Source: Klebsiella phage EI
Reading direction: 5' to 3' (one strand)
Length of the DNA: 64,000 nt
Sequence record: MN106245.1
Shown here: positions 4,438-47,482 of the stretch, one piece after another
Layout: each line of letters begins with the position of its first letter
How positions within the stretch are numbered: the first letter of the stretch is position 1
The notes under the pieces: model-generated
Told to the model about the DNA's origin: nothing
Databases searched by the model: none
The model's input: only the letters and a program-made list of their open reading frames with translations
Program-made: the position numbers and the translations under genes

Positions 4438-4453
4438 ATTTTCCTCATAAATT

Positions 4454-4713: not shown

Positions 4714-4717
4714 GAAT

Positions 4718-6962: not shown

Positions 6963-6969
6963 TAAATTA

Positions 6970-7042: not shown

Positions 7043-7047
7043 TTTAA

Positions 7048-8006: not shown

Positions 8007-8181
8007 TGGTGTACCCGCTTGTTATAGAACAAAATGAAGAACTAATGACTTCATACTTGTCGTTAAAGTCTTTACGTTCACGAGCGGCTTCAATAGCTTC
8101 TTCAATAGAGCCGTAACAATCTACAAAATCACCTGTCCCGCCACAAGGGTAGTACCGAGACCACATGAATAATCCGTACAT
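7996..8181 (-). CDS. hypothetical small protein
   Basis: ORF track. Confidence 0.35.
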   Translation of the reverse strand: MYGLFMWSRYYPCGGTGDFVDCYGSIEEAIEAARERKDFNDKYEVISSSFCSITSGYTNDL

Positions 8182-32849: not shown

Positions 32850-34832
32850 ATGGCTTTAATCTCTCCTGGAATTGAGCTCAAAGAAACGAGCGTCCAAAGC
32901 ACGGTAGTCATTAACGCTACAGGTCGTGCTGCATTAGTTGGTAAGTTTCAATGGGGTCCAGCATACCAAGTTACTCAGGTTACTAACGAAGTAGAACTTG
33001 TTGACCTGTTTGGTGGACCGAACAACCAGACAGCTGACTATTTTATGTCTGGTATGAACTTCCTTCAGTATGGTAATGATCTTCGTACCGTACGTGTTGT
33101 AAACGAAGAGGCTGCTAAAAACGCAAGCCCTATCGCTGGTAACATTGAATGGACCATCGATACCGCAGGTACTAACTACTCTGTAGGTGATAAACTGACC
33201 GTAAAATATCTGACTACGGATGTTGAAACAGAAGGTCGTATTACTAAAGTAGATACCGATGGTAAAATCCTTTCAATCTTTATCCCGACTGCAAAAATTA
33301 TCGCTTACGCGAAGTCCATTAATCAGTATCCCAATTTAGGCAGTTCTTGGACCGTTGAAATCGCAGGAACTTCTGCAGGTGTTTCTGGCGGTATTAGCTT
33401 AGGTAAAATTATCGTTGATTCTGGTATTCTGTTGACCGATACAGAAACGGCCGATGAAAAAATAACTAATACTACCTTCCAAACTGCATTATCTAAGTAT
33501 GGTATGCCTGGTGTTGTGGCGATTTATCCCGGTGAAATCGGTTCTACTTTGGAAGTAGAAATTGTTTCTAAAGCTACCTACGATGCTAATGCAGTTTCTC
33601 TGTTAGATATGTATCCGGGTGGTGGTACTCGCGCGTCAACAGCCAAGTCTGTATTCGGCTACGGCCCTCAAACGCCAGATCAATATGCTATTATCGTTCG
33701 CCGTGACGGGACTTTAGTAGAAAATGTTATCCTATCCACTAAGCGTGGCGATAAGGATATGTACGGTAATAACATCTTTATGGATGATTATTTCGCCAAC
33801 GGTTCTTCTAAGTTCATTTTTGCTACTTCAGAAGGCTGGCCTAAAGATTTCAGTGGTATTATTCAGTTAAATGGTGGCGTTTCTGCTAATGAATCTGTTA
33901 CTGCGGCGGATCTTATGAAAGGTTGGGATCTGTTTGGTGACCGTGAAGCACTGCGTGTTAACCTGCTTATTGCTGGTGCATGCGCCGGTGAAGAAGCCGA
34001 AGTTTCTTCTACCGTACAGAAACACGTCGTTTCTATCGGCGATGAACGCCAAGACTGTTTAGTTCTTATTTCTCCGCCTCGTTCTGCTCTTGTTAATGTT
34101 CCGCTAACGCGTGCTGTTGACAATCTGATTGATTGGCGTGAAGGTACTGGTTCTTATACAGATTCTAACATGAACATTAATACCACATACGCGGCAATTG
34201 ACGGTAACTATAAGTATCAATACGATAAATATAACGACGTTAACCGTTGGGTTCCTTTAGCAGCTGATATTGCAGGTCTCTGTGCTCGTACCGACACAAC
34301 TTCTCAGCCTTGGATGTCTCCGGCTGGATACCGTCGCGGCCAGATCCTGAACTGCATTAAACTGGCTATTGAACCTCGTCAATCGGCACGTGATCGCATG
34401 TATCAAGTAGGTATTAACCCTGTTATTGGCCAAGGTACAGGTGAAGGTTTCATCCTGTTTGGCGATAAAACCGCTACTACAGTTCCGACTCCGTTCGACC
34501 GTATTAACGTTCGTCGTCTGTTTAACATGCTGAAAACCAATATCGGTGACAGTTCCAAGTATCAAATCTTCGAGCTGAATGATAACTTCACACGTTCCTC
34601 GTTCCGTATGGAAACAGGTCAATACTTAGCGAACATTAAAGCTCTTGGCGGTGTGTACGATTTCCGTGTTGTCTGTGATACTACTAACAACACCCCGGCG
34701 GTCATCGACCGTAACGAATTCGTTGCATCGTTCTACATCAAGCCGGCCAGATCGATAAATTATATTACTCTTAATTTCGTAGCTACAGCTACTGGCGCAG
34801 ACTTTGATGAACTGATTGGTGTTCAACAATAA
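32850..34832 (+). CDS. 18: gp18 contractile tail sheath
   Basis: 660 aa (T4 659). Confidence 0.9.
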   Translation: MALISPGIELKETSVQSTVVINATGRAALVGKFQWGPAYQVTQVTNEVELVDLFGGPNNQTADYFMSGMNFLQYGNDLRTVRVVNEEAAKNASPIAGNIEWTIDTAGTNYSVGDKLTVKYLTTDVETEGRITKVDTDGKILSIFIPTAKIIAYAKSINQYPNLGSSWTVEIAGTSAGVSGGISLGKIIVDSGILLTDTETADEKITNTTFQTALSKYGMPGVVAIYPGEIGSTLEVEIVSKATYDANAVSLLDMYPGGGTRASTAKSVFGYGPQTPDQYAIIVRRDGTLVENVILSTKRGDKDMYGNNIFMDDYFANGSSKFIFATSEGWPKDFSGIIQLNGGVSANESVTAADLMKGWDLFGDREALRVNLLIAGACAGEEAEVSSTVQKHVVSIGDERQDCLVLISPPRSALVNVPLTRAVDNLIDWREGTGSYTDSNMNINTTYAAIDGNYKYQYDKYNDVNRWVPLAADIAGLCARTDTTSQPWMSPAGYRRGQILNCIKLAIEPRQSARDRMYQVGINPVIGQGTGEGFILFGDKTATTVPTPFDRINVRRLFNMLKTNIGDSSKYQIFELNDNFTRSSFRMETGQYLANIKALGGVYDFRVVCDTTNNTPAVIDRNEFVASFYIKPARSINYITLNFVATATGADFDELIGVQQ

Positions 34833-34870
34833 TATAATCACCTACCGGAAAGACCTGAAGTCATTATACT

Positions 34871-34978
34871 ATGGCTTCAGGTTTAGCAATAAATCCGTAG
34901 GACGCCGCCAGGCGAATCCTTTTTAGAGGATAATAAATTATATTAACCACAATTTAAATTATCCCTGGCGTCCACAGA
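34871..34978 (+). promoter_or_regulatory. structured 18-19 intergenic leader (hairpin CCTGAAGTC..GCTTCAGG and a long-range GGACGCC..GGCGTCC pairing) ending in late promoter TATAAATA at 34992-34999
   Basis: inverted repeats found by eye. Confidence 0.35.
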
Positions 34979-35012
34979 CACTTCCAGGCGATATAAATAA
35001 GAGAGATTACTT

Positions 35013-35504
35013 ATGGAGCTTACAGACATCACCAAAGCATTCGAATCCGGTGACTTCGCTCGTCCTAACCTGTTTGAAGTTGAAATCCCATTCCTTGGCC
35101 GTAACTTCAGCTTCCAGTGTAAAGCTGCTACTATGCCTGCGGGTATTGTAGAAAAAGTTCCTGTTGGATATATGAACCGCAAAATTAATATTGCCGGAGA
35201 CCGTACATTCGACGATTGGACTATCACAATTTATAACGATGACGCTCATGAAGTTCGTAAAGCTATTATTGCTTGGGCTGCCATGGCTCATTCCCAGGGT
35301 AATGAAATTACAGGTTCTACCCCTGCTGAATATAAGAAAACTGCTAAAGTTCGTCAGTTCTCACGTGATGGTAAAACTGTCACTAATGAACACGAAATCG
35401 TAGGCCTTTGGCCGACCAACGTAGGCGAAGTTACCCTCGATTGGGATTCGAATAACGAAGTTGAAACATTTGAAGCTACCTTTGCCCTTGACTGGTGGCT
35501 GTAA
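35013..35504 (+). CDS. 19: gp19 tail tube
   Basis: 163 aa, the same length as T4 gp19; near-identical N-terminus (TKAFESGDFARPNLF). Confidence 0.9.
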   Translation: MELTDITKAFESGDFARPNLFEVEIPFLGRNFSFQCKAATMPAGIVEKVPVGYMNRKINIAGDRTFDDWTITIYNDDAHEVRKAIIAWAAMAHSQGNEITGSTPAEYKKTAKVRQFSRDGKTVTNEHEIVGLWPTNVGEVTLDWDSNNEVETFEATFALDWWL

Positions 35505-35527
35505 TTCTGGTAGGGTCTTCGGGCCCT

Positions 35528-35574
35528 ATCGCTATTTCTTAAGCGAATGATCTTACGAAATAGCGATATAAATA
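35528..35574 (+). promoter_or_regulatory. 11-bp stem (ATCGCTATTTC / GAAATAGCGAT) immediately abutting late promoter TATAAATA (35567-35574) upstream of gene 20
   Basis: perfect inverted repeat whose 3' arm overlaps the promoter. Confidence 0.4.
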
Positions 35575-35590
35575 GTAGTAAGAATCATTA

Positions 35591-37171
35591 TTGGAGAAAG
35601 TAATGAATTTCAACATTCTAAGTTTATTCGCTCCGTGGGAAAAACACGATGAGTCCGAATATAAACGACAAATTAGAGACGATTTAGAATCCATTACCGG
35701 ACCCAAATTCGATGATGGAGCTCATGAAGTAGAAACTAATGAGCAAGATGCCCCGTATAACGCGTTTAACCAAATGATGTTTGGTACTCAGTTGCCGGGA
35801 ATGAAAACTACTCGTGAGCTTATTGACACTTACCGTAGTTTGATGAACAACTATGAAGTAGATAACGCAGTCCAGGATATTATTTCAGATTCCATCGTTT
35901 ACGAAGATGGCCACGATGTAGTATCTTTAAATCTCGACTCTACCAACTTTAGTGCAAATATAAAAGAACGAATGATGGACGAATTCAAAGAAATTTTGAA
36001 CTGTCTTGATTTTGAAAGAAAAGGTAGTGACCATTTCCGCCGTTGGTATGTAGACTCGCGCATCTTCTTCCATAAAATTATCGATCTTAAGCGCCCTAGA
36101 GAGGGTATCAAAGAGCTTCGTCGTTTGGATCCACGTAACCTTCAGTATGTTCGTGAACTAATCACAAAAGAAGAAGCCGGTGTTAAAGTCGTTAAAGGCT
36201 ATAAAGAATACTTTATCTACGATACAGCTAACGAAAGCTACTGCGTAAATAACAAAGTTTATTCTGCCCACACTAAGATTAAAATTCCGCGGTCAGCTAT
36301 TACGTATGCTCATTCAGGTTTAGTTGATTGCTGCGGTAAAAGCATTATCGGTTATCTTCATCGTGCAGTTAAGCCTGCTAACCAGCTTAAACTCTTAGAA
36401 GATGCGTTAGTAATTTACCGTATCACACGTGCACCGGACCGCCGTATCTTTTATATTGATACCGGGAATATGCCTTCTCGTAAGGCGACAGCACATATGC
36501 AGCATATTATGAACACAATGAAAAATCGTGTTGTGTATGACGCTTCTACCGGTAAAATTAAAAACCAACAACACAATATGTCTATGACTGAAGACTATTG
36601 GTTGCAACGACGTGATGGTAAAGCAGTAACAGAAGTTGATACCTTACCGGGTGCCACTAATATGAGTGACATGGATGACGTACGTTATTTCCGTGCAGCT
36701 CTTTATATGGCTCTTCGTGTTCCGTTATCTCGTATGCCGTCTTCTGCTTGAAAAAAAAAAGTGCAGTTCGATGCTGGAACCGGTATCACTCGCGAAGAAT
36801 TAGATTTCCGTAAATTTATCCGAGACCTTCAACATAAGTTTGAAGAAATTATGCTTGATCCTCTGAAAACCAATCTTCTTTTGAAGAAAGTTATTACAGA
36901 AGATGAGTGGAATAAAGAGATAAATAATATTAAAGTTGTGTTCCACCAAGACTCATACTTCACAGAAATGAAGGATGCAGAAGTGATGGAACGTAGAATC
37001 AATATGCTAACCATGGCTGAACCGTTTATTGGGAAATACATTTCTCACCAATATGCCATGAAAACTTTCTTGCAGATGTCTGATGAACAGATTGATCAAG
37101 AAGCTAAGCAAATTGAATTAGAGTCTAAAGAGGCTCGTTTCCAAGACCCAGAAAATGTAGAGGACTTCTAA
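35591..37171 (+). CDS. 20: gp20 portal vertex protein (one gene; the reading frame is interrupted at 36749 by a stop introduced from adapter/poly(A) sequence)
   Basis: ORFs 35591-36751 (386 aa) and 36761-37171 (136 aa) are in the same frame and total 522 aa (T4 gp20 524); the junction contains ATCTCGTATGCCGTCTTCTGCTTG + A10. Confidence 0.85.
36727..36760. other. Illumina adapter 3' end (ATCTCGTATGCCGTCTTCTGCTTG) plus A10 embedded in gene 20: consensus corruption
   Basis: the same adapter/poly(A) signature as at 562-595. Confidence 0.85.
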
Positions 37172-37375
37172 ATGGAAGAATTAATGGAAGCAATTAAGGC
37201 TAACGACCTCGTTGCAGTACGTAAAGCCGTGGCTCCACTGCTGCAAGAACGGACGTCTAGTTTAATTGAAGAGCTTAAAGTCAAAATTGCAAGCTCAGTC
37301 ATGATCGAAGGCGAAGAACCTGAAGAAGATTCGGAGGATGACGCCGATGACGACGATGATGAGGACGACGAATAA
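37172..37375 (+). CDS. 67: gp67 prohead core protein (acidic C-terminus)
   Basis: 67 aa ending [20 protein letters not shown]; synteny. Confidence 0.7.
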
Positions 37376-37800
37376 TGTTGATACTCCCTGAAAATTTCGA
37401 ATTAGTTATCGAGAACGTTGAAAGCAAAATTCAAGAAGCTCAGGGCCGCATAGACCATTTGTCTAAAGCATTCGATAAAGACGGTATAAATACAATTGTA
37501 GAGAACATGATGGCTAGCGAAACCGAACTGGCCATCGCAATGGGCGCTCTCAATGAAGATATGCAACTTAATGAATTTATCGTTAAGCACGTCAATAGCC
37601 GCGGTGAAGTGACCCGCCTTAAAGACCGCAAAACTCGTGAGCGTAATGCTTATCAAACTACTGGTCTTTCTAAATCGAAGCGCCGTCAAATTGCTCGAAA
37701 AGCGGTCAAATCTAAACGGGCGAACCCGAGCGTGATAACTCGTGGTATTCGCAAACAAAAGAAAGCTATTAAACGCCGTCAAGCACTAGGACTGAGCTAA
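37375..37800 (+). CDS. 68: gp68 prohead core protein
   Basis: 141 aa, the same length as T4 gp68. Confidence 0.75.
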
Positions 37801-38465
37801 TGTCAAACGTCAATGAACAACTCTTAATTGAGAACTGGGGAATACCGGGTGAAATCATTGATGGAAAACCTATGCTCGAATCGTTTGAACAGCCTTCAGA
37901 CGGGTCGAGCGGTTTAAAGCCAGGGCTGTATATTGAAGGTATTTTCCTTCAAGCCGAAGTGGTAAACCGTAATAAGCGGTTGTATCCTAAAGCTGTCCTA
38001 GAGCGTGCCATTGACCGGTATATAACCGAACAAGTTAAAACTAAGCAGTCATTAGGAGAACTAAATCATCCTCCTCGTGCAAACGTCGACCCAATGCAAG
38101 CTGCTATCATTATTGAGGATATGTGGTGGAAGGGTAATAACGTTTATGGACGCGCACGTGTCATCGAAGGTGACAACGGACCGGGTGATAAATTGGCTGC
38201 TAACATCCGAGCAGGGTGGATTCCTGGAGTGTCTAGTAGAGGCCTGGGCACATTAAAAGATTCAGGTAAAGGATATAACATCGTACAAGAAGGTTTTCGC
38301 CTGACGGTAGGTGTTGATGCAGTTTGGGGTCCCTCAGCTCCAGATGCGTTTGTAGCACCGCGAGAAATTCGTGAGTCTACAGAAAAGGTAGAAGCAACTG
38401 CCAAGATGAATGCTGATAAAGCATTTACCGCTCTAATCGAGAGCCTAGAAAAGCATTATAAATAA
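37800..38465 (+). CDS. 21: gp21 prohead core scaffold protease
   Basis: 221 aa (T4 212). Confidence 0.8.
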   Translation: MSNVNEQLLIENWGIPGEIIDGKPMLESFEQPSDGSSGLKPGLYIEGIFLQAEVVNRNKRLYPKAVLERAIDRYITEQVKTKQSLGELNHPPRANVDPMQAAIIIEDMWWKGNNVYGRARVIEGDNGPGDKLAANIRAGWIPGVSSRGLGTLKDSGKGYNIVQEGFRLTVGVDAVWGPSAPDAFVAPREIRESTEKVEATAKMNADKAFTALIESLEKHYK

Positions 38466-38493
38466 TAATGTAACTTAACAACAGGACACCAAA

Positions 38494-39300
38494 ATGCTTA
38501 AAGAACTTCTGATGACCGAAGCTCAGACTATTGATGCTAAAGTCGAACTAGATAGCATTTTCGAATCAGTTGAACTGTCTGCCGATGTTAAGGCTAAGTT
38601 TGAAACTGTTTACGAAACTGCTGTAAAAGCCGCCGCTGTAAAGCTGGCTGAATCTCACATCGAAAAAATCGCCACCCTGGCCGAAGAAAAAGTCGAAGAA
38701 GAAAAGGAAAAAGCTGAGAAAAAAATCACTGAATCGGCCGCTAAGTTCCTCGACCACGTTGCCAAAGAATGGCTTGCCGAAAACAAACTGGCTGTAGATC
38801 GTGGTATTAAAGCTGACTTATTCGAATCCATGGTTGTCGGTCTGAAAGATCTGTTCGTCGAACATAACGTTGTGGTTCCAGAAGATGCTGTAGATGTTGT
38901 TGCAGAACTTCAAGAAGAAATCGCTGAACAGAAAGCTGAAACTGCGCGTCTGTTTGAAGAAGTAAACATGCGCGATGCTTATATCAATTACGTTCAACGC
39001 GAAACTGCTATGAACGAAGCTACCCGCGACTTAACTGAATCCCAGAAAGAGAAAGTTATTTCTCTGACTGAAGGTTTGGAATATTCTGATGCATTCGGTA
39101 CTAAACTGGCCGCCATCGTAGAAATGGTACAGTCCTCCGCTGAAGCTTCAGCAATTGTCGAAAGTGCTGATATAAATACTATTGACAAAGATGCTGAGGG
39201 TCTTAACTTCACTGTCGAAGCTGTAGAACCCGAAGAAACTCCTAAACAATCCGGTGGCCTGATGGCTGCATATGTCGCTTCAGCGGCTCGTATTTCTTAA
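38494..39300 (+). CDS. 22: gp22 prohead core scaffolding protein
   Basis: 268 aa (T4 269), highly acidic coiled coil; late promoter at 38457-38464. Confidence 0.8.
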   Translation: MLKELLMTEAQTIDAKVELDSIFESVELSADVKAKFETVYETAVKAAAVKLAESHIEKIATLAEEKVEEEKEKAEKKITESAAKFLDHVAKEWLAENKLAVDRGIKADLFESMVVGLKDLFVEHNVVVPEDAVDVVAELQEEIAEQKAETARLFEEVNMRDAYINYVQRETAMNEATRDLTESQKEKVISLTEGLEYSDAFGTKLAAIVEMVQSSAEASAIVESADINTIDKDAEGLNFTVEAVEPEETPKQSGGLMAAYVASAARIS

Positions 39301-39320
39301 TTTAAAAAGGTTATTAACAC

Positions 39321-40886
39321 ATGAAAACTAACAAACTCGTAGAAAAATGGACTCCGCTGCTTGAAGGTGAAGGTCTACCGGAAATCGTTGGCGCCGGTAA
39401 GAAAGCACTGATTGCAAAAATTATGGAAACCCAGGAAGCAGCTATTCAGACTGAACAGGCTTTCCGTGACGAAAAAATTGCTGAAGCTTTTGGTTCTTTC
39501 CTGAGCGAAGCAGAAATTGGCGGTGACCACGGTTACGATGCTCAGAATATCGCAGCAGGCCAGACCTCTAGTGCTATCACTCAGATCGGCCCGGCAGTAA
39601 TGGGTATGGTTCGTCGTGCTATTCCTAATCTGATTGCTTTTGATATCTGCGGTGTTCAGCCTATGTCCAGCCCTACCGGCCAGGTATTTGCACTGCGTGC
39701 AGTATACGGTAAAGATCCGATTGCTCCAGGTGCTAAAGAAGCTTTCCATCCGATGTTTGCTCCGGATGCAATGTATTCAGGCCAGGGTGCTACCGCTCAG
39801 GGTCGTGCATTCGCTGAAATTAAAGCAGGCACTGAAATCACCGAAGGTGATATTGTTAAGCATGTATTCCAGGAAACCGGGATTGCTTACTTCCAGGCTG
39901 TTGAAACCGTAACCCCGGGAGCTGCCGCTAACGCCGCCGCACTGGATGCAGTTGTTATGGGTCTGGTTGAAGCCGGTAAACTGGCTGAACTGGCCGAAGG
40001 TATGGCTACTTCTATCGCTGAACTGCAGGAAGGCTTCAATGGTTCCAAAGACAATCCGTGGAACGAAATGGGCTTCCGTATCGATAAGCAAGTTATCGAA
40101 GCTAAATCTCGTCAGCTGAAAGCTCAGTATTCCATCGAACTGGCACAGGATCTGCGCGCTGTCCACGGTATGGATGCAGATGCCGAACTGAGTTCTATTC
40201 TGGCTACTGAAATTATGCTGGAAATCAACCGTGAAGTTGTTGACTGGATCAACTACTCTGCTCAGCCTGGTAAAACCGGCATGACCCAGACCATTGGTTC
40301 TAAAGCAGGCGTGTTCGACTTCCAGGATCCGATTGATATCCGTGGTGCTCGTTGGGCCGGTGAAAGCTTTAAAGCTCTCCTGTTCCAGATTGACAAAGAA
40401 TCCGCTGAAATCGCTCGTCAGACCGGTCGCGGTGAAGGTAACTTCATTATCGCTTCCCGTAACGTTGTAAACGCACTGGCTGCTACTGATTCTGGTATCA
40501 CCTATGCTGCACAAGGCCTGGGTAAAGGTTATAACGTTGATACCACTAAATCTGTGTTTGCAGGTGTTCTTGGTGGCAAATACCGCGTCTACATTGACCA
40601 GTATGCTCCGCAGGACTACTTCACCATCGGTTATAAAGGCAGCAACGAAATGGATGCCGGTATCTACTATGCTCCTTACGTTGCGCTGACCCCGCTGCGT
40701 GGTTCCGATCCGAAGAACTTCCAGCCGGTCATGGGCTTCAAAACCCGCTACGGTATTGGTATTAACCCGTTCGCTGATTCTAAACTGCAAGCTCCTGGTG
40801 CACGTATTCAGTCCGGTATGCCGTCCATCGTTAACAGCGTTGGTAAAAACGCCTACTTCCGGCGTGTATGGGTCAAGGGCCTGTAA
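39321..40886 (+). CDS. 23: gp23 major capsid protein
   Basis: 521 aa, the same length as T4 gp23. Confidence 0.9.
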   Translation: MKTNKLVEKWTPLLEGEGLPEIVGAGKKALIAKIMETQEAAIQTEQAFRDEKIAEAFGSFLSEAEIGGDHGYDAQNIAAGQTSSAITQIGPAVMGMVRRAIPNLIAFDICGVQPMSSPTGQVFALRAVYGKDPIAPGAKEAFHPMFAPDAMYSGQGATAQGRAFAEIKAGTEITEGDIVKHVFQETGIAYFQAVETVTPGAAANAAALDAVVMGLVEAGKLAELAEGMATSIAELQEGFNGSKDNPWNEMGFRIDKQVIEAKSRQLKAQYSIELAQDLRAVHGMDADAELSSILATEIMLEINREVVDWINYSAQPGKTGMTQTIGSKAGVFDFQDPIDIRGARWAGESFKALLFQIDKESAEIARQTGRGEGNFIIASRNVVNALAATDSGITYAAQGLGKGYNVDTTKSVFAGVLGGKYRVYIDQYAPQDYFTIGYKGSNEMDAGIYYAPYVALTPLRGSDPKNFQPVMGFKTRYGIGINPFADSKLQAPGARIQSGMPSIVNSVGKNAYFRRVWVKGL

Positions 40887-40901
40887 TTTTAAAACCTTTA
40901 T

Positions 40902-40921
40902 GGGAGAGCTTTCGCTCTCCC
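40902..40921 (+). terminator. hairpin GGGAGAGCTTTCGCTCTCCC followed by TTTTT
   Basis: perfect stem after gene 23. Confidence 0.6.
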
Positions 40922-40940
40922 ATTTTTGTTTGTAGACCTT

Positions 40941-40948
40941 TATAAATA
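40941..40948 (+). promoter_or_regulatory. late promoter TATAAATA upstream of gene 24
   Basis: exact consensus. Confidence 0.6.
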
Positions 40949-40975
40949 GAATTATATCAACCCGAGGAAAGCGCA

Positions 40976-42247
40976 ATGGCTAAAATTAACGAACTTCTGC
41001 GCGAATCAACTGTAACGAATAGCATCCAATATGGTCGCCCGAATCTCGTTGCATTGACCCGCGCTACTACTAAATTGGTTTACACTGACATCGTCGCCGA
41101 ACAACGTACTACTCAGCCTGTTGCTGCTCTGTATGGTGTTAAATACGAAACCCCAGACGATGAACTCTCTTTTAAAACAGGTGCTACTTACGGCGGTGCT
41201 GCTTCTGCATCTGACCGGGATAGTATAGAAGAAATTACTTCTGCAACACACTCTGTGACGGCAGGGACACTTTATAAGTATAACAATGTGGTTTATAAGG
41301 CCTTAGAATCGGGTGCTCTAAACGGCGCTACTATTGACGAAGCTCTGTCTGAAGCCCTTATCACTTTAAAGCTTCGTTTTTATTCTGAGGCAGCTGAAAC
41401 GGTTAAATTTGAATCTAATAATGTAGAAATTAGTTCTGCTAATTTCACTGTTAACAAATGGAACGCTCGAGTTAAAACCCGTAAGCTGAAAACTTCTCTG
41501 ACTGTTGAACTGGCCCAGGATCTAGAAGCTAACGGCTTTGATGCTAACATGTTTCTTGAAGATCTTCTTGCAACAACAATGGCCGATGAAATCAATAAGG
41601 ACGTTCTTCAATCCTTGATTACAGTTTCTAAACGTTATAAAGTTGCAGGCGTTTCTGACGACGGATCTGTTGATTTATCTTACTCAAGCGCCCCTGAAGC
41701 GGCCCGTAAACTTTACCAATTAGTTTGCGAAATGAACAGCCATATTCAAAGTAAAACTTCTTATTCTGGAACCTATGTCGTTGCTAGTGCTCGTGCTGCT
41801 GCTGTTCTGGCTGGGTCCGGATGGCTGAAACACCGCCCTGAAGATGACGAATACCTTGCAGAATCTGCGTACGGGTTCCTGGCTAACGGTCTTCCGGTAT
41901 TTGTTGATGTTAATAGCCCATTAGATTATGTCACTGTAGGTGTTAAAGAATCCTTCGGCGGTAGTGAAGTTATTGGATCTTTGTTCTATGCACCTTATAC
42001 TGAAGGTCTTGATCTTGATAATGACGAACATGTCGGCACCTTTAAGGTAGTTGTCGACCCTGATTCTTTACAGCCTACTATTTCGTTGATGGTTCGGTAC
42101 GCGTTGTCTGCTAATCCATATACCGTTGCTAAAGATGAAAAAGAAGCTCGAGATATTGATGCAACCAATATGGATAAGATGGCAGGTCAAAGCGACATGT
42201 CGGTCCTTCTGGGTGTTAAACTCCCTGCTATTTTAAGTGAGCCATAA
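40976..42247 (+). CDS. 24: gp24 head vertex protein, copy 1 (the copy closer to T4 gp24)
   Basis: 423 aa; N-terminus MAKINELLRESTVTNSIQYGRPNLVALTRATTKL nearly identical to T4 gp24. Confidence 0.85.
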   Translation: MAKINELLRESTVTNSIQYGRPNLVALTRATTKLVYTDIVAEQRTTQPVAALYGVKYETPDDELSFKTGATYGGAASASDRDSIEEITSATHSVTAGTLYKYNNVVYKALESGALNGATIDEALSEALITLKLRFYSEAAETVKFESNNVEISSANFTVNKWNARVKTRKLKTSLTVELAQDLEANGFDANMFLEDLLATTMADEINKDVLQSLITVSKRYKVAGVSDDGSVDLSYSSAPEAARKLYQLVCEMNSHIQSKTSYSGTYVVASARAAAVLAGSGWLKHRPEDDEYLAESAYGFLANGLPVFVDVNSPLDYVTVGVKESFGGSEVIGSLFYAPYTEGLDLDNDEHVGTFKVVVDPDSLQPTISLMVRYALSANPYTVAKDEKEARDIDATNMDKMAGQSDMSVLLGVKLPAILSEP

Positions 42248-43515
42248 TGAAAATAGATCGATTAATTCAAGAAAGTACTTTAACCTCTTCTAATCAGGCC
42301 GGGAGGCCTGATTTACTTTCGTACACCAAAGCAACTAATAAAAGAATCTTTAAGGCCCTCGTAGCAGAACAACGCACTCGTCAACCTGTTGCCGCTTTAT
42401 ATGGTATCAGAGTTCTGAACCCTGAAGATAATATGACTTATGTAGGCGGTGCTACATTCGGTGGTCTTATGGGCCCTGAATCCAGAGCCAATACTCCAGA
42501 ATTCGTCGGCCAGGCACCGTATAATAAAGGTGACTTATTCAAACACGAATCTGTCATCTTTAAAGCTCTTGAAGATAATCCTTTTGCTGGATCTACTGAA
42601 ACCAGTCATGACGAGCTTATTTCTGAAGCTATTGCGGCCGGAACTATCCGCATGGTTTCTGATGCCGCTCCAACTGCACAGTTTGAAGCTGGTCACCCTG
42701 AAATAGCTGAAGCCGGGTTCCGTGTCGATAAATGGCAAACTACGGTTAAATCCCGCAAACTTAAAACTTCTGTTACTGTTGAATTAGCCCAAGATCTAGA
42801 AGCTAATGGATTCGATGCCCCTGATTTCTTAGACGATATGCTAGGTATCCAGATGGCTGAAGAAGTAAACAAAGACATTCTTCAATCGTTGGTTACAGTT
42901 TCTAGTAGGTTTAAAGTTCACGGTGTGTCATCTAAAGGGGTTTTAGACCTTACAGATCCTAAATATGATAACGCCCAGGATCGTGCACGTACGCTGTATT
43001 ACTACATGTGCGAGATGAATTCTGCCGTCCAACGCAATACTTCGTTCGCTGGGACATATGCCGCAGCTAGTTCTCGCTGTGCGGCTATTTTAGCTGCTTC
43101 AGGCTGGGTTGAAAAGCGAGATGACGGTGATGAGTTAGCCTACGGCTATCTGAAGAATGGTCTGCCTCTTTACGCGGATATGAATACGCCGGCAGAATAT
43201 GTTATTGTTGGTGTTAATGCAGATATGGGTGAAGGCCAGACGGTGGCATCATTATATTATGCGCCTTATACTGAAGGTATGGATGTAGAAGATGATATTG
43301 ATCAAATGGGCGAATTCAAGATAGTTGTCGACCCTGATTCTTTACAGCCTACTATTTCTTTACTCGCACGGTATGCTTTGTCTGCTAATCCGTACACTGT
43401 TGCTAAAGATGAAAAAGAAGCTCGAATCATCGATGGTTCTGATATGGATAAGATGGCTGGTCAGAGTCTATTAAGTTCTTACCTCGGCGTTAAGTTACCA
43501 CCGCTCGAGAAATAA
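42247..43515 (+). CDS. gp24 head vertex protein, copy 2 (divergent tandem paralog)
   Basis: 422 aa; ~55-60% identical to copy 1 by eye; shared C-terminal block DPDSLQPTISL..RYALSANPYTVAKDEKEAR. Confidence 0.8.
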   Translation: MKIDRLIQESTLTSSNQAGRPDLLSYTKATNKRIFKALVAEQRTRQPVAALYGIRVLNPEDNMTYVGGATFGGLMGPESRANTPEFVGQAPYNKGDLFKHESVIFKALEDNPFAGSTETSHDELISEAIAAGTIRMVSDAAPTAQFEAGHPEIAEAGFRVDKWQTTVKSRKLKTSVTVELAQDLEANGFDAPDFLDDMLGIQMAEEVNKDILQSLVTVSSRFKVHGVSSKGVLDLTDPKYDNAQDRARTLYYYMCEMNSAVQRNTSFAGTYAAASSRCAAILAASGWVEKRDDGDELAYGYLKNGLPLYADMNTPAEYVIVGVNADMGEGQTVASLYYAPYTEGMDVEDDIDQMGEFKIVVDPDSLQPTISLLARYALSANPYTVAKDEKEARIIDGSDMDKMAGQSLLSSYLGVKLPPLEK

Positions 43516-43519
43516 AAAT

Positions 43520-43537
43520 GGGAGCCATAAGGCTCCC
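43520..43537. terminator. hairpin GGGAGCCATAAGGCTCCC, bidirectional between 24 copy 2 (+) and the DprA-like gene (-)
   Basis: perfect stem. Confidence 0.5.
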
Positions 43538-44083
43538 TTATAAATTAAAAATATCAAACTTTGGCCTATATTTGTCTTCGAATTTTTTAAATACTTCTGA
43601 ATTGTTCAGATTAATACATTTAATACCATACTTTTTAGCTATATCAACTGCAACTCTAGTTCCGCCTTGAACTCTGCCATTTCTAACCGGGGCCCAGTAT
43701 AAAACTAAATCCACAGGGTTTTGACATGATAATCCAAAAACTTGACATGCATTACGAGCAAACAACTTTCTAACTATATCTGAGCAATTTTCCCAGTACG
43801 AGGTAACTGATTGGGCTATTCTATAACTAGCTGTTTGAACGTCCACTGGTAAGTTTTCAAAACTTACAACCCCTAAGCCAACAAAATGGCCACAGAACCC
43901 GTTGTAAGGTATTATCCTCAGAGATTTAGACCTATCATATTTTGCCAGCCAAGCTTCATCTGAACCAGGCGCTCCGCCACTATAAGCTAAATATCCTTTA
44001 TTTGAAAAGTTTTCACCTATAGATGTCATCAAATCAAGAACTTTGCGGGGCGCCTTTCGAGAACCAATCAGCGCCACTCTCAT
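43538..44083 (-). CDS. DprA/Smf-like Rossmann-fold (SLOG superfamily) protein
   Basis: 181 aa; ALIGSRKAPRKVLDLM...AYSGGAPGSDEAW matches the DprA core pattern (GSR..p..g...SGlArGiD.aaH). Confidence 0.5.
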   Translation of the reverse strand: MRVALIGSRKAPRKVLDLMTSIGENFSNKGYLAYSGGAPGSDEAWLAKYDRSKSLRIIPYNGFCGHFVGLGVVSFENLPVDVQTASYRIAQSVTSYWENCSDIVRKLFARNACQVFGLSCQNPVDLVLYWAPVRNGRVQGGTRVAVDIAKKYGIKCINLNNSEVFKKFEDKYRPKFDIFNL

Positions 44084-45081
44084 TAATTACTTACCAATTC
44101 AAACCACGCCGGACGAAGCACGTCTTGTATCAGCTTAGTAATTTCTTTCTTCACGATATCAGGCTGTTCTGCTTGAATGACTTCAAGACCTTCTCGTTCA
44201 GCTTCAATAAGGATATCTTGAACTGTTAAGCCCATAACCTTTCCAAAGTCTTTAGGACCAACCTTACCGATCTTACTAATAACGTTGTTCACACGCTGAA
44301 TAGTAACGTATTCAGAGAATTTCTGCAGAACGTCTTGGTCAATTTCACTCAGAACAGCTTTAGGCTTAATAGGCTTATCAGATTTAGCTTTTTCGCTGAA
44401 CTTAGAGTTCTTACACTTGATAGCCACACGACTGCCGTTAGCCAGGAACCGTGGATAATTAGGTTTCAGTACATAGCCTTCAGCCGTATTATCGGTGGCT
44501 TCTTCAGCCGGCCAGATGCGGGTATTAGCATTTCTGAGGTCTACTTCTGCGGCTTCGTTGTAACGATTAACGTTAATCTGGAACTCATTAGGCAGTTTAA
44601 TCAGTTCATCAAATGAACCACGACCCATCAGAGGTGCAACCTTGAAACCAAAGGTGCAACACATCTGTTCCATCATAAAATCATCTACAAATTGATGAGT
44701 ACCTTTATCGGTTTTAACCAAGATATCAAAGACATAGAAATCTTTCTCGCCGTAATCAACACCTTTCTGGATACCGCCACCAGCGAATTCACCGAAGATC
44801 TGCATACTAGAGCCTTCTTTAATTGTATTTTGTACGGCTTTAATAGAGTCGTTATATTTCTTTAAAATAACAGTGTACCCAAAGAAGTCTTCAGCTGGAA
44901 GAATAGGACCTGTGCGCTTCGCGCATGTGACTGCATCACGTTCAATGATAATAGAAAAGTTGGTACCATGAATCTTTTCACGTGCACACCAGCCTTCAGT
45001 TACATCATAGCCGTGGTGTCGAATCTTTTCAATAAATTTATTATTGTAGTGGTTCTCAAGACTAGAATATTTCTCAAACAC
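44083..45081 (-). CDS. rnlB: RNA ligase 2
   Basis: 332 aa; N-terminus [19 protein letters not shown] and the KIHGTN ligase motif I closely match T4 Rnl2. Confidence 0.9.
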
Positions 45082-45322
45082 ATTTCACCTCTAAATATCA
45101 GAACAAACATAATTAAAAGAGTAAAGACTTCTACCGCCAGTACTCTTAGCTTAAACCCATTATACCGAATATATCACAAAAATTTTTAAAGCATATTAGA
45201 ATGTAATTTCTACCCAGTCACCGTCTCGTTGATCATGCTTCCAATTAACTACCACACCATCGTCTTGCATCCATTTAATCAGCTGGTCTTTATATTTCTT
45301 TGCCATTGAGGATGGATACCAA

Positions 45323-45559
45323 TTAAACTTGGCGTTTGCCTTTCAGAGCATGAGTTTTAAATTCCAGTTCAACTTCGTCTTTGGCTTTTTTCAATTCAGT
45401 AGTAGCGACAGAGTCCGCCAGGGCACCATAGTGTTCTACTAATGTAGAAACACGTGGCTCGTTAACGAGTGCCTTCAGGCCGCCAATAGGTTGCCCTGAT
45501 TCGTCCCATCCTTGAATACGTCGAGATTTTAGATCCGGTTGAAATGCAGAATCATGCAT
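45323..45559 (-). CDS. hypothetical small protein
   Basis: ORF track. Confidence 0.4.
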   Translation of the reverse strand: MHDSAFQPDLKSRRIQGWDESGQPIGGLKALVNEPRVSTLVEHYGALADSVATTELKKAKDEVELEFKTHALKGKRQV

Positions 45560-45782
45560 TATAACACCTCATTTTTTCAACTAATTTAGTATGGTCTGTA
45601 ATAAGCCGTTTACGATAAATTACTCTTTCTCGAGCCTTGGCTCGCTCTCTGGCTTTTTCGACTTTTATCCATTCCTGCATAGCTTCTTTAGCACTGATAC
45701 CAAACTGTTTAGCGATATCAATAAAACTAGTACCAGTTTCATGCATCATATGAATCTTTAATGCTTGCATGGTTAGCTCCAC
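45552..45782 (-). CDS. small helix-turn-helix DNA-binding protein
   Basis: TSFIDIAKQFGISAKEA looks like a helix-turn-helix. Confidence 0.45.
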   Translation of the reverse strand: MELTMQALKIHMMHETGTSFIDIAKQFGISAKEAMQEWIKVEKARERAKARERVIYRKRLITDHTKLVEKMRCYNA

Positions 45783-45889
45783 TTAGTGATGTTGAGGTTA
45801 TTAAATCATAAAAATTTTAAAGCTAACTCTGGAGCCTTTAGATGCCAATGTGGGGCCGAAGCCCCACTATCAATAGATATAGTCGTAGA

Positions 45890-46696
45890 TTATTCCAACA
45901 TCAAGAGCGGACCGGTGAACAAAACACGTCCATTTCTAGATTCTTGGACATCGACTTCAGGGTACTCTTCTAGCATTTTAGCCAGAGTATACCGATGCAG
46001 GTAATAATCACTGTCAGGGTCGTCGAGTTTCCAATCTTTGCCCTCAACAGTCATTCGCTGGATTTCATCCATTACCCACCATCCACACCGGATATAGGCT
46101 GTTCCACGGAACGGTAGAGGATGAATATATGGAAGTTCTCCGTCTGGCTCAGGGGCTACTCTTTTAGTAAAAGCAACAGCAATACCTTTAGTCGCGGTTC
46201 CATTATTATAATCCGGCGCAGAAACCTTTACTTCACAATTAAGTGTGTAGCTAGTTTCCGCTGATTCAGTTAAGGTAATTGTTTTACCTGTTTGGCCTGC
46301 AATAACAGTAGTACCACGTTTCCACACGTAAGCAATGCTTGCTCCAGCCGGCGCCCCGCTAACATCCGCTGTAACTACTTGAGATTGGCCAATTTCTTTA
46401 GAAACTGAAGTTGGGCTCAAAGTTAAAGTAATAGCAGGCATGGTTTTGTTCTTAACCGTCAGAGTAGTTTCTGCTTCGGCCGTTTCAGGATCGCCTTCAG
46501 CCGGAGTGACGGTAGCAACTACTTTAATAGTCTTACTACCTGCAGGTCCTGCAGCAACATACTTCATAGCTGCAGTAACAGAAGATTGCTTTACACCATT
46601 TACAGTCCACACAAATGATTCTGTACCTTCGACAGCAGCACCAGACGTGGTTGCAGTAAAATTAGTTGTGGCCCCAATGACTGCTGAAGCAGCCAA
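45890..46696 (-). CDS. hoc: Hoc, outer capsid Ig-like decoration protein; shorter than T4 Hoc and start codon uncertain
   Basis: C-terminal capsid-binding block APEPDGELPYIHPLPFRGTAYIRCGWWVMDEIQRMTVEGKDWKLDDPDSDYYLHRYTL close to T4 Hoc; ~270 aa versus 376. Confidence 0.8.
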   Translation of the reverse strand: MAASAVIGATTNFTATTSGAAVEGTESFVWTVNGVKQSSVTAAMKYVAAGPAGSKTIKVVATVTPAEGDPETAEAETTLTVKNKTMPAITLTLSPTSVSKEIGQSQVVTADVSGAPAGASIAYVWKRGTTVIAGQTGKTITLTESAETSYTLNCEVKVSAPDYNNGTATKGIAVAFTKRVAPEPDGELPYIHPLPFRGTAYIRCGWWVMDEIQRMTVEGKDWKLDDPDSDYYLHRYTLAKMLEEYPEVDVQESRNGRVLFTGPLLMLE

Positions 46697-46733
46697 AGGA
46701 GCAATAGATACGCCTATAAGCCATAGTCGGTCC

Positions 46734-47453
46734 TTATTTTAAAGTTACAAACGAAGAATTACGGGTTTCACGAATCATAATAGATCCGTTTCTTTTGATG
46801 TAATAAATTAAACTAAACAGTGTCTGGTGTGCACTAGGGTGTGGGAAGCTGGTAGGTCTTGATTTCCAATCAGGCGTATCTTTAATCCACTTATAAATCC
46901 ACCACGGTAAAGTCACATACCCTGGATTTCGGCCCATCAGAATAAAATGAGGACTAAAGTTTTCTGGTAGTTCAAAAGTAGTTTCGTCAGCGATAATTTT
47001 AGATACGGCTTCTTCAAAGGTATTTTCAGAAAGCTTAGCCTTGGGTTCGGAGAATTCACCTATAGGCGCCTCAATATGAATAGCTTTTTCTTCAATAACT
47101 GATTGATCTTGAACGGGTTCTTTGATTTCGTGAATAGATACAGGAATTTCCGGAGAATCAAATAACAGTTTAGCTTCGGGCTTAGCTTCATCATCACCAA
47201 GTACAAAGTCGTTCTTGCCTTCAAGTTCATCATCAGCGGCAATAAGGTCACTGATACTCAGACCTTCGTTATCTTCTGGCATAGGCTCTTCGGCCATCTT
47301 TTTAAAAGCTGCTTCGATATCTAAGACCAGATTTTCAAAGCCTTTACTCTTTTTCAGTTGGATATTAAATCCTTCGGCATATTCAATAAGTTTGGATTTG
47401 GCTTCTTTTTTATTTTCAAGACCACGAAGGTCATCAATATATTGTTTATCCAT
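46734..47453 (-). CDS. inh: Inh, inhibitor of gp21 prohead protease
   Basis: N-terminus MDKQYIDDLRGLENKK and C-terminus LPENFSP...TLPWWIY.WI..PDWK.RP..FPH.SA..TLFSLIYYI.RNGS..IRETR match T4 Inh. Confidence 0.85.
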   Translation of the reverse strand: MDKQYIDDLRGLENKKEAKSKLIEYAEGFNIQLKKSKGFENLVLDIEAAFKKMAEEPMPEDNEGLSISDLIAADDELEGKNDFVLGDDEAKPEAKLLFDSPEIPVSIHEIKEPVQDQSVIEEKAIHIEAPIGEFSEPKAKLSENTFEEAVSKIIADETTFELPENFSPHFILMGRNPGYVTLPWWIYKWIKDTPDWKSRPTSFPHPSAHQTLFSLIYYIKRNGSIMIRETRNSSFVTLK

Positions 47454-47474
47454 AGTGTCTCTCTCTTTCTAGTG

Positions 47475-47482
47475 TATAAATA
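47475..47482 (+). promoter_or_regulatory. late promoter TATAAATA upstream of uvsW
   Basis: exact consensus. Confidence 0.5.

Follow-up and report, generated by a model that had tools for sequence, protein, structure and literature searches.

We analysed a window of 64,000 nucleotides from Klebsiella phage EI (MN106245.1), in which the gene for the major capsid protein is followed by two adjacent genes of the head vertex protein family (Table 1). The phage is Marfavirus-like, and its public relatives carry the annotation "capsid vertex protein (x2)". The first vertex gene, copy 1, is of the 24a type and encodes the canonical head vertex protein; the second, copy 2, is of the 24b type and encodes a derived paralog. 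The gene 23 product, which forms the lattice into which vertex proteins fit, is 81% identical in amino acids to T4 gp23.

Overall, both copies are intact gp24-family genes. The earlier note had allowed for a frameshift or a stop in one of them; none was found within either ORF, and the same intact pair recurs in about 116 separately deposited genomes. Over their full length the two products share 54% identity (BLASTP, E = 3e-164), far beyond chance, and the genes have the same composition, with GC3 of 0.32 and 0.33. The capsid family Gp23/Gp24 (PF07068) matched residues 18-414 of copy 1 (E = 1.4e-98) and residues 17-414 of copy 2 (E = 3.7e-94). The T4 gp24 structure 1YUE was matched over its full length by both, with 634 bits (E = 9e-190) for copy 1 and 498 bits (E = 2e-148) for copy 2, whereas gp23 chains scored 42-47 bits against either copy. 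The gp23 encoded upstream is 23-27% identical to each of them. The products are of gp24 size (about 420-430 aa, without the long gp23 propeptide), and the genes lie in the gp24 position, directly 3' of gene 23 and under a late promoter. These alignments, which the earlier note had proposed, agree with its description of two full-length gp24 paralogs in tandem after gene 23, with copy 1 the closer to T4 gp24 (68% identity against 56% for copy 2). As it also said, the T4 genome has a single gene 24.

Table 1. Features of the gene 23-24 locus of phage EI, in window coordinates
Feature	Position	Strand	Basis
Gene 23 homolog, major capsid protein, 521 aa	39321..40886	+	ORF; PF07068, E = 2.5e-122
Intrinsic terminator-like hairpin after gene 23, 10-bp stem, then TTTTTGTTTGT	40900..40923	+	
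T4-type late promoter box TATAAATA, 27 nt 5' of copy 1 ATG	40941..40948	+	
Shine-Dalgarno GAGG of copy 1	40964..40967	+	sequence; Marfa record has RBS at equivalent place
Copy 1 (24a type), canonical head vertex protein, 423 aa	40976..42247	+	ORF and homology
37-nt tract in copy 1 (TAGTTGTCGACCCTGATTCTTTACAGCCTACTATTTC)	42048..42084	+	identical sequence
Shine-Dalgarno-like GTGAG within copy 1 3' end, 5 nt before copy 2 ATG	42237..42241	+	
TAATG stop/start overlap, 1 nt shared	42245..42249		
Copy 2 (24b type), derived vertex-protein paralog, 422 aa	42247..43515	+	ORF and homology
37-nt tract in copy 2	43322..43358	+	identical sequence
GC-rich hairpin GGGAGCC-ATAA-GGCTCCC, immediately after copy 2	43520..43537	.	
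DprA-like gene, convergent	43538..44083	-	

Transcription and translation signals

The late promoter box TATAAATA upstream of copy 1 is the sole such box on the + strand from 39171 to 47475; in the window as a whole, 16 matches to the late box were counted against 6.5 expected. At all ten loci examined, T4 gene 24 included, a late box lies 33-37 nt 5' of the first vertex gene. The Marfa record has a terminator annotated at the position equivalent to the hairpin after gene 23, and both the Marfa and the PhiKpNIH-6 records have one right after the second vertex gene. The hairpin that follows copy 2 in phage EI was scored on the - strand, where ATTTTTATTT follows, and it is likely a two-way terminator common to copy 2 and the convergent DprA-like gene. 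Between the two copies we found no convincing terminator, and copy 2 has no late box of its own. Judging by these signals, the pair appears to share one late promoter and to be expressed as one unit.

The junction of the genes is equally regular. The distance from the stop of the first gene to the start of the second is -4 to +1 nt in all ten pair-bearing loci, which represent six lineages, and a GAGG/TGAG motif is present at the junction in every one. In phage EI, the Shine-Dalgarno-like GTGAG and the TAATG overlap together suggest that copy 2 is translationally coupled to copy 1. The second ATG had been described as overlapping the first stop at 42245-42250. The one-base overlap is there, but TAA (42245-42247) shares its last base with ATG (42247-42249), so that ATAATG occupies 42244-42249, one base to the left.

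Distribution and ancestry of the pair

A survey of T4-like genomes, also proposed in the earlier note, recovered the gp24 pair in about 116 phage records from at least six lineages, or about 8% of the T4-like records with a full-length gp24 match. The lineages are Marfavirus, Dhakavirus, Gaprivervirus, Gelderlandvirus, Kanagawavirus and one more divergent lineage. Among Marfavirus records copy 2 is intact in 21 of 21, at 96-99% amino acid identity. In IMG/VR, the canonical copy lies directly upstream at all 17 loci with a 24b-type gene. The pair is already known: it has been annotated since the JS98 genome (as 24a/24b) and in VR5/VR20, and it was remarked on in the Melville/S16 literature (PMC6486254), which disposes of the novelty implied before. 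It is an old conserved two-gene module, without recent duplication in phage EI; of the tandem duplication described earlier, the adjacent paralogs stand, but the event does not belong to this phage. Extra duplications seemed to occur in Aeromonas phages ("3 places" by tblastn). These are an artefact, because the records begin inside the head genes.

Because assemblers can create or collapse tandem paralogs, we weighed whether copy 2 might stem from faulty assembly or sequencing, or be a pseudogene in decay; no support for this was found. The intact pair in about 116 independent deposits and 17 IMG/VR contigs, the freedom from stops and frameshifts, and a dN/dS of 0.02-0.04 for copy 2 refute this reading, to which we attach practically no probability.

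Relatives with a single vertex gene exist as well. In Biddle_MM4, whose gp23 is 99.0% identical to that of phage EI (5 conservative changes), a single PM2-like gp24 replaces the pair, and the breakpoints of this cassette swap fall at 40931/40932 and 44092/44093. Other single-copy phages are vB_EcoM_005 (Dhakavirus) and PEi20 (Kanagawavirus). Therefore, the second vertex protein is not required by the gp23 lattice. We considered whether the single gp24 of vB_EcoM_005 and Biddle_MM4 could be a product of unequal crossover between 24a and 24b, and rejected this, as sliding-window identity revealed a uniform PM2-like allele.

The relationship of the copies was examined with distance (NJ) trees only, built from Kimura and gamma distances with or without the insertion (I) domain. 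Copy 1 grouped with the single gp24 of T4, CC31 and PM2, leaving copy 2 outside, with 100% bootstrap support, which became 65-83% with more taxa and gamma-corrected distances. An exclusive clade of copy 1 and copy 2 appeared in 0% of the full-length bootstrap replicates under all these settings. This contradicts a recent, lineage-specific duplication, under which the two would be closest relatives. Copy 2 was monophyletic with the 24b of JS98, P896, STML-198, Kosakonia 305 and L035 with 100% bootstrap in every analysis, apart from all first-copy and single-copy gp24s. Its identity to 24b is 77-79% in four other genera, whose 24a it matches at 54-56%. Globally, 24a and 24b are each monophyletic, with no clustering by genome, the C-terminal block included, and orthologs across the at least six lineages are merely 63-79% identical.

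Both copies are under strong purifying selection. For ortholog comparisons with unsaturated dS, dN/dS was 0.060, 0.066 and 0.050 for copy 1 and 0.028, 0.035 and 0.021 for copy 2, an overall range of 0.02-0.07. Across 21 genome pairs, the pairwise distances of 24a and 24b correlate (r = 0.95), and 24b has evolved at 0.88 times the rate of 24a.

As to origin, the pair arose either by an ancient in-place duplication with a burst of change in 24b, or by ancient capture of a divergent allele; the gene 24 locus demonstrably swaps cassettes. Under capture, 24b would have come long ago from a divergent T4-like phage, perhaps a donor near the Jiaodavirus gp24 lineage, via recombination at the gene 23-24 junction, and 24a and 24b would be xenologs. 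The whole-cassette swap seen in Biddle_MM4 speaks for this, as do the homing endonuclease genes between genes 23 and 24 in T4, PhiKpNIH-6, TG1, Berthold and vB_EcoM_005, and the case of L035, in which a different canonical allele occupies the upstream slot while the second gene remains 24b. The failure of the copies to form an exclusive full-length clade points the same way, and 24b grouped with Jiaodavirus gp24 in 30-76% of replicates. However, any specific sister group is weakly supported in these NJ-only trees, and a burst of change after duplication predicts the same deep, long branch. In addition, the best tree of the last 76 columns has 24a and 24b as sisters (22% bootstrap), and the composition of the copies is identical. 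We regard capture as a realistic origin that falls somewhat short of an even chance; it concerns origin only.

Divergence of the second copy and its possible role

The similarity of the two copies varies along their length. In 30-codon windows it is lowest at residues 61-120, the I domain (21-34% identity), and highest at residues 354-400 (80-87%), as the earlier note had described in outline. It had also treated the divergence of the insertion domain as the mark of copy 2. The copies do differ there, but this region is the most variable part in every gp24 comparison. The C-terminal RYALSANPYTVAKDEKEAR block is identical in copy 1, copy 2 and T4 gp24.

Gene conversion was considered as a source of the C-terminal similarity. 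The 37-nt tract shared by the copies lies in a region of low synonymous divergence (pS 0.24 in codons 340-368 against about 0.7 elsewhere), and within it Marfavirus copy 1 has the copy-2-type QPT in place of the QPS or QPA of other copy 1 genes. The tract is probably a short patch left by gene conversion in the Marfavirus lineage alone. As a general cause of the C-terminal similarity, recent gene conversion was rejected: clustering follows the type of copy, not the genome, and third-position identity in this block is similar between genera and within genomes.

At the N-terminus, copy 1 begins with MAKINELLRE/S (slash, presumed processing site), identical to the T4 gp24 propeptide, and copy 2 with MKIDRLIQE/S, which retains the protease motif I-x-E/S. 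At the level of the motif, both thus have the short gp24-type propeptide, L/I-x-E followed by Ser. The form L-I-x-E/S occurs in every 24b, at the site where T4 gp24 loses its 10 N-terminal residues by cleavage (PMC9546572). The N-arm of copy 2 is, however, remodelled (LLSYTKATNKR, RV). There are 22 residues that are invariant in the 24b clade and absent from all other Tevenvirinae gp24s compared; 24a has 0 of this kind. Eleven of the 22 fall at otherwise near-invariant gp24 sites, and eight of these 11 lie within T4 positions 8-66: 8 I, 25 L, 26 S, 32 N, 34 R, 56 R, 57 V and 66 Y. We defined this N-arm signature here, there being no published definition, as invariant in 10 of 10 24b proteins and absent from 20 other Tevenvirinae gp24s. 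Copy 2 carries it, and the remodelled N-terminal arm, rather than the divergence of the I domain, is the feature specific to copy 2. In T4 gp24, residues 26-29 pair with an I-domain linker that belongs to the adjacent subunit of their own pentamer, and residues 11-20 extend onto the neighbouring hexamer (PMC9546572).

It is thus shown directly that the two genes are intact, homologous, inherited together and under purifying selection, that they share expression signals, and that they have diverged asymmetrically. A capsid with one vertex protein is feasible, yet a second, strongly constrained one is kept across at least six lineages. The pair is inherited as one unit and, from its signals, would be expressed as one. 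Of the two copies the second alone is derived, with its private changes concentrated in the N-arm, the part that touches the neighbouring subunit. We lean slightly towards the reading that phage EI combines a canonical vertex protein with a specialised, co-expressed second vertex subunit. Late transcription would run through both genes as a unit, beginning at the TATAAATA promoter (40941) and ending at the hairpin (43520), and copy 2 would be translated by coupling to copy 1 through the TAATG overlap. The 24a product would act as canonical gp24, the protein from which T4 makes the pentamers of its 11 non-portal head vertices. The 24b product, an old derived paralog with apparently the same fold, size and prohead-protease cleavage motif, would enter the prohead, be trimmed by the prohead protease and be incorporated into the shell, where it would serve as a second vertex subunit with a specialised role. 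Its private and strictly conserved region covers the N-terminal arm and the start of I-domain linker 1, and the matching segments in T4 make contact between neighbouring subunits of one pentamer. With the private substitutions placed on T4 numbering by alignment, the most plausible form would be 24b homopentamers at some of the 11 vertices. For 24b we infer in this way the expression level, cleavage, incorporation, homopentamer formation and vertex choice.

The stricter version of this reading has two kinds of pentamer, with 24b homopentamers insulated from 24a by the private N-arm and linker and placed on a distinct subset of the 11 vertices. We hold it only tentatively and think it rather doubtful. 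Candidates for such a subset would be the lone vertex at the distal apex or a ring of five vertices. If it is true, this would be a naturally two-vertex-protein capsid of the T4 type, with the single-gene cassette of Biddle_MM4 as a natural control. Against a second vertex subunit in either version, T4 and most of its relatives make do with one gp24 for all 11 vertices, and the independent gp24* subunits of T4, 11 in number, are near-identical (PMC9546572). Geometry does not demand a second vertex protein, nor, judging by the single-copy relatives, does the lattice.

Could the two genes instead be interchangeable, the second being a redundant spare or allele kept by chance, for a dosage benefit or as a recombination reservoir? 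Viable single-copy relatives are found within three of the pair-bearing genera, the domain layout of the two proteins is the same, and the 37-nt identical tract demonstrates that the copies can exchange sequence. But redundancy predicts decay or homogenisation, and the pair is intact across lineages whose orthologs have diverged as far as stated above. Constraint on 24b is at least equal to that on 24a, the private invariant residues are confined to 24b, and each copy is monophyletic without clustering by genome. Redundancy is therefore improbable in our view.

Another alternative is that 24b is functional and made late but has no stable place at the vertices of the mature head. It might be an assembly factor that nucleates or proofreads vertices and then leaves, or a decoy or modulator of capsid-sensing immunity. 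That the capsid vertex protein can determine immune sensing is documented: the change A380V in this protein lets T6 escape type IV Thoeris, and the wild-type protein in trans restores immunity (PMC13243611). Cassette exchange between close relatives is expected under diversifying host pressure, the 24b of L035 has a natural Val where it aligns with position 380, and a gp23 lattice 99% identical to that of phage EI does without the pair. On the other hand, sensing in T6 is dominant; as the sensed protein in trans restored immunity, a second vertex protein would add a target and hide nothing. Both copies have Ala at aligned position 380 (T6 numbering taken as that of T4) and an identical RYALSANPYTVAKDEKEAR block, so the specific idea of an escape variant at this site is not supported. 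Furthermore, 24b retains the full HK97-type core, the I domain, the length and a protease motif that is meaningful only inside the prohead, and its low dN/dS extends over the whole length, as is typical of a tightly packed shell protein. We judge a role away from the mature vertices unlikely.

We found neither virion proteomics nor a structure for pair-carrying phages in the literature covered, and no functional study of the second vertex protein; PMC9319786 (Kanagawavirus, which mentions mass spectrometry) and the JS98 (10.1128/JB.00838-07) and S16 (10.1111/mmi.12134) papers lay outside this coverage. The vertex genes go unmentioned in the papers on Marfa, F48, Kosakonia 305 and the Yersinia Gaprivervirus. 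In PMC13119998 the virions analysed by mass spectrometry are those of Jiaodaviruses, which are single-copy, and the proteomics of cells infected with the Marfavirus VAC36 has no phage structural proteins among those listed. Nature has provided near-isogenic phages with the pair (phage EI, Marfa) and with a single foreign gp24 (Biddle_MM4, gp23 99%). This set lends itself to comparing head stability, the fidelity of assembly and immune sensing. Immune sensing has become more relevant now that triggering of type IV Thoeris has been shown to require the vertex protein.

Comparison with known systems

The closest named counterpart is the 24a/24b pair of JS98 (Dhakavirus, EF469154), which has the same order of gene 23, late promoter, 24a, 24b and convergent rnlB. 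Copy 1 is 72% identical to its 24a and copy 2 79% to its 24b, and each is monophyletic with its counterpart. In JS98 the stop and start abut exactly, whereas phage EI has a 1-nt overlap; in JS98 a small ORF on the reverse strand separates gene 23 from 24a, and in phage EI a DprA-like gene separates 24b from rnlB. The two phages also differ in host genus and in their own genus. The JS98-type pair occurs in IME08, P896 and VR5/VR20 too, the latter two using the label "capsid vertex protein II".

The Melville genome note reported a tandem duplication of the capsid vertex gene in common with S16 (PMC6486254). Like phage EI, the Salmonella phages S16, Melville and STML-198 (Gelderlandvirus) have the TAATG-type 1-nt overlap and a DprA-like gene after the pair. 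Their genes encode proteins 74% and 77% identical to copies 1 and 2, respectively, at about 75% nucleotide identity overall, and their 24b has a loop 4 residues longer at T4 positions of about 348-359. No reported function was found for the Gelderlandvirus pair.

T4 gp24 (1YUE, 5VF3, 7VS5) resembles both copies in family, fold, length and place after gene 23, and T4 gene 24 resembles copy 1 in late promoter spacing and in the propeptide MAKINELLRE. By contrast, one gene builds all 11 vertices in T4, and copy 2, 56% identical, departs at the 11 near-invariant positions. T4 gp24 can be bypassed via gp23 mutations (PMC10580926; PMC9546572), which parallels the dispensability of the second vertex gene in close relatives.

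The paralogy of gp23 and gp24 has the same theme, a capsid-shell gene copied beside its parent and then specialised. Those two are 23-27% identical and have clearly different roles, hexamer and pentamer, while 24a and 24b are 54% identical. Outside phages, CsoS4A and CsoS4B of the alpha-carboxysome lie side by side and are paralogs, and both encode the pentameric vertex protein of a single icosahedral shell. Their fold and biology are unrelated to gp24, and they offer an analogy for two vertex paralogs rather than a homology.

Two vertex genes behind gene 23

The report of two full-length gp24 paralogs in tandem after gene 23 was confirmed. The two copies, 24a and 24b, aligned over their full length with 54% identity (E = 3e-164), and both matched Pfam PF07068 from end to end. 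Against the solved structure of T4 gp24 (1YUE), copy 1 and copy 2 scored 634 and 498 bits, compared with about 45 bits for gp23 chains. The identity of gp23 to either copy was just 23-27%. Gene 24 is single in T4, as the earlier note had stated. The stop codon of copy 1 (TAA, 42245-42247) and the start codon of copy 2 (ATG, 42247-42249) do overlap, by one base; only the position of the ATAATG needed correction, to 42244-42249, one base further left. The idea that the second copy is an artefact was refuted.

Coordinates of features in the window and in compared loci
Feature	Sequence	Coordinates	Strand	Remark
Portal (gp20) ORFs	window	35591-36751 and 36761-37171		break region 36737-36763
In-frame TGA of portal gene	window	36749-36751		followed by an A10 run, then GTG
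Gene 23 homolog	window	39321-40886		directly 5' of vertex pair
Terminator-like hairpin	window	40900-40923		3' of gene 23
T4 late-promoter box TATAAATA	window	40941-40948		27 nt before copy 1
24a ORF (copy 1)	window	40976-42247	+	intact, 423 aa
24b ORF (copy 2)	window	42247-43515	+	intact, 422 aa
37-nt tract identical between copies	window	42048-42084 (copy 1); 43322-43358 (copy 2)
GC-rich hairpin	window	43520-43537		3' of copy 2
DprA-like "DNA recombination-mediator" gene	window	43538-44083	-	between 24b and RNA ligase 2; variable
Exchanged segment	window	40932-44092		24a, 24b and DprA-like gene; 3.16 kb
Its counterpart	Biddle_MM4	6613-8056		one gp24; 1.44 kb
segD-like homing endonuclease gene	PhiKpNIH-6	3114-3776		T4 homing endonuclease gene of the same gap at 2733-3395
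24b of divergent lineage L035	IMGVR_UViG_2974736276_000001	3495-4778		most divergent 24b ortholog

Beyond the box in front of copy 1, no late-promoter box was found on the + strand until 47475, and no convincing terminator was seen between the two copies. Together with the tight junction, these signals favour a single late transcript on which both genes are translationally coupled. The layout recurred elsewhere: in 10/10 loci examined, T4 included, the box preceded the first vertex gene by 33-37 nt, and in 10/10 pair-bearing loci the two genes were separated by -4 to +1 nt, a GAGG/TGAG motif lying shortly before the junction.

Distribution and age of the pair

A survey of T4-like genomes for the same pair, as proposed in the earlier note, showed that it is already known and already annotated. 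The DNA of the region was 96-97% identical to that of Klebsiella phages HMGUkp2, Clarke_MM3 and Marfa, and about 91.5% identical to that of F48-type phages; all belong to the Marfavirus type, and in their records two neighbouring genes are called "capsid vertex protein" or "major head protein". Using tblastn with copy 2 (E <= 1e-150), we found orthologs in 116 phage records; this is about 8% of all those having a full-length gp24-type match (1,414). The 116 included 21 records of Klebsiella Marfaviruses (96-99% identity), the Dhakaviruses JS98 (genes named 24a and 24b) and IME08, the Gaprivervirus phages VR5 and VR20 (both "capsid vertex protein II") and P896, the Gelderlandvirus phages STML-198, Melville and Proteus phage ABTNLPp2, Kanagawavirus-type Enterobacter and Kosakonia phages such as ZX14 ("head vertex protein II"), three Erwinia records and one Yersinia record. 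In the literature on the second vertex gene, we found no paper testing its role.

We built neighbour-joining trees with bootstrap from 29 and later 35 gp24 sequences, drawn from 19 annotated and 21 IMG/VR loci. The copy-2-type proteins formed one clade and the first-copy proteins of the five main genera another, each with 100% bootstrap. With a smaller taxon set, the first-copy clade joined the single gp24 of T4, CC31, PM2 and others to the exclusion of copy 2, again with 100% bootstrap; with more taxa and gamma-corrected distances, support for this grouping was 65-83%. Copy 2 was drawn weakly (30-76%) to Jiaodavirus gp24. A clade of copy 1 and copy 2 alone was recovered in 0% of full-length replicates, whichever model was used and whether or not the I-domain was included, and in 22% of replicates when only the last 76 columns were used. 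The pair is not a duplication that arose in this phage. On these distance trees, the pair may have arisen either by duplication in place followed by a burst of change, or by capture of a divergent allele.

The distances of copy 1 and of copy 2 were tightly correlated over 21 genome pairs (r = 0.95), with copy 2 changing at 0.88 times the rate of copy 1; across genera, orthologs were 77-79% identical for copy 2 and 72-75% for copy 1. The canonical copy stood directly upstream in 17/17 IMG/VR loci with a copy-2-type gene. The correlated distances and this constant arrangement indicate an old module that has long been inherited as a unit. Among these 17 loci was a sixth, more divergent lineage (L035, an IMG/VR contig), at 63% and 65% identity; its upstream copy is a Jiaodavirus-like allele outside the 24a clade.

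The 37-nt tract identical in the two copies looks like a short gene-conversion patch, and within it Marfavirus copy 1 bears the copy-2-type QPT; Kanagawavirus-type pairs have another identical stretch of 20 nt common to both copies. Relative to Marfa, dS was four times higher for copy 2 (0.29) than for copy 1 (0.07), which implies that close Marfaviruses have recombined, with a breakpoint inside the two genes or between them.

Constraint and the proposed role of the second copy

For orthologs with unsaturated synonymous divergence, copy 1 had dN/dS values of 0.060, 0.066 and 0.050, and copy 2 had values of 0.028, 0.035 and 0.021. Both copies are strongly constrained, copy 2 no less than copy 1. 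Identity between the copies was lowest (21-34%) at residues 61-120, which by alignment to T4 correspond to the I-domain with its linkers; in T4 gp24, linker 1 runs from about residue 60 to 81 and linker 2 from about 143 to 154 (PMC9546572). The divergence noted earlier in the insertion-domain region is thus real. It is nevertheless not special to copy 2, because in every comparison this region varied more than the rest of gp24, identity being 54% among copy 1 sequences and 61% among copy 2 sequences.

By contrast, 22 residues were private to copy 2, being invariant in 10/10 copy 2 sequences and absent from 20/20 other Tevenvirinae gp24s, while copy 1 had none; this marks copy 1 as the canonical gp24 and copy 2 as derived. 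Half of them (11/22) fell at otherwise near-invariant positions, eight of these at T4 positions 8, 25, 26, 32, 34, 56, 57 and 66. In expanded T4 heads, a parallel beta interaction joins residues 26-29 to an I-domain linker of the adjacent gp24* in the same pentamer, and residues 11-20 reach onto the neighbouring hexamer (PMC9546572). By alignment with T4, fixed private changes lie on both sides of one intra-pentamer contact, as would be expected if 24b subunits preferentially pair together. Furthermore, all copy 2 proteins kept L-I-x-E followed by Ser at the prohead protease cut site of T4 gp24, which speaks for the presence of copy 2 within proheads.

We propose a conserved two-gene module that would be transcribed late as a unit, its two genes very probably both functional and co-expressed. 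In it, 24a would be the canonical vertex subunit and 24b a specialised second one. The latter would be taken into the prohead, trimmed and assembled into the shell, with separate homopentamers at a subset of the 11 vertices as the most plausible arrangement. A place for 24b as a structural component of the vertex is somewhat favoured; that it marks a distinct vertex class is a tentative suggestion. A role of 24b in assembly or immunity, without stable incorporation, seems unlikely. Plain redundancy of two vertex genes is highly improbable, being contradicted by the selection on both copies, the private residues and their long co-retention.

Cassette exchange at the vertex locus

Biddle_MM4 was 94-98% identical to the window at 34398-40931 and 44093-47084. 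Between these flanks, from the end of the gene 23 terminator to the 3' end of rnlB, the two vertex genes and the DprA-like gene were replaced by a segment of about 1.4 kb with one gp24. This gp24 was closest to those of vB_EcoM_005 (77%) and PM2 (74%), with 69% identity to copy 1 and 56% to copy 2. The gp23 proteins of the two phages differed at 5/521 residues, so this gp23 lattice does not require a second vertex gene. Single genes also occurred in PEi20, classed as a Kanagawavirus (PMC13119998), and in the Dhakavirus vB_EcoM_005, whose PM2-like gp24 (68% identical to JS98 24a) adjoins a homing endonuclease gene. Such whole-cassette swaps and single-copy relatives identify the locus as a site of cassette exchange. 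A 24a/24b chimera was ruled out for both single genes tested (vB_EcoM_005 and Biddle_MM4). The vB_EcoM_005 record has a length of 155 kb, compared with about 170 kb in other Dhakaviruses; this phage has either lost or swapped genes at several sites or been assembled incompletely.

Homing endonuclease genes occupied the gene 23-24 gap in T4, PhiKpNIH-6, TG1, Berthold and vB_EcoM_005, and may drive allele exchange here; the gap in the window is just 89 nt and has no such gene. The DprA-like gene was also present in F48-type Marfavirus records (VAC36, MY02, phi1_146055) and Gelderlandviruses. Its slot held an unnamed ORF of about 180 aa, similarly placed, in CC31, PM2 and KpV477, an unrelated + strand hypothetical gene in Marfa, two small ORFs in PhiKpNIH-6 and nothing in Biddle_MM4.

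The portal gene is interrupted in the window. At the break, Biddle_MM4 reads RMPDLNNQGGIQFDAG, where the window has another stretch of 15 protein letters; the independently sequenced Marfa has the same 24-nt replacement, with ATG for GTG and no CDS annotated there, and the portal is intact in all other Marfaviruses among those listed. The break lies in the flexible tunnel loop (residues 374-398 in T4 gp20; PMC4493910), affecting residues 380-387 out of 522, and this may be a naturally split gene with reinitiation.

Immune-sensing pressure could explain the allele swapping at the vertex locus. T6 escapes type IV Thoeris via A380V in its capsid vertex protein, and the wild-type protein in trans restores immunity (2026, PMC13243611). 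Sensing was dominant there, so an additional vertex protein would probably not conceal the first one. Assuming that T6 numbering equals T4 numbering, position 380 lies within the RYALSANPYTVAKDEKEAR block, which is unchanged in both window copies, with Ala at 380; the 24b ortholog of L035 has Val, the T6 escape substitution. In summary, the interpretation in the earlier note is supported in part: the tandem gp24 pair consists of real paralogs, but in an old, widespread and annotated module; what it leaves of value is the function of the second copy, and the natural comparison of pair-bearing with single-copy phages identified here.
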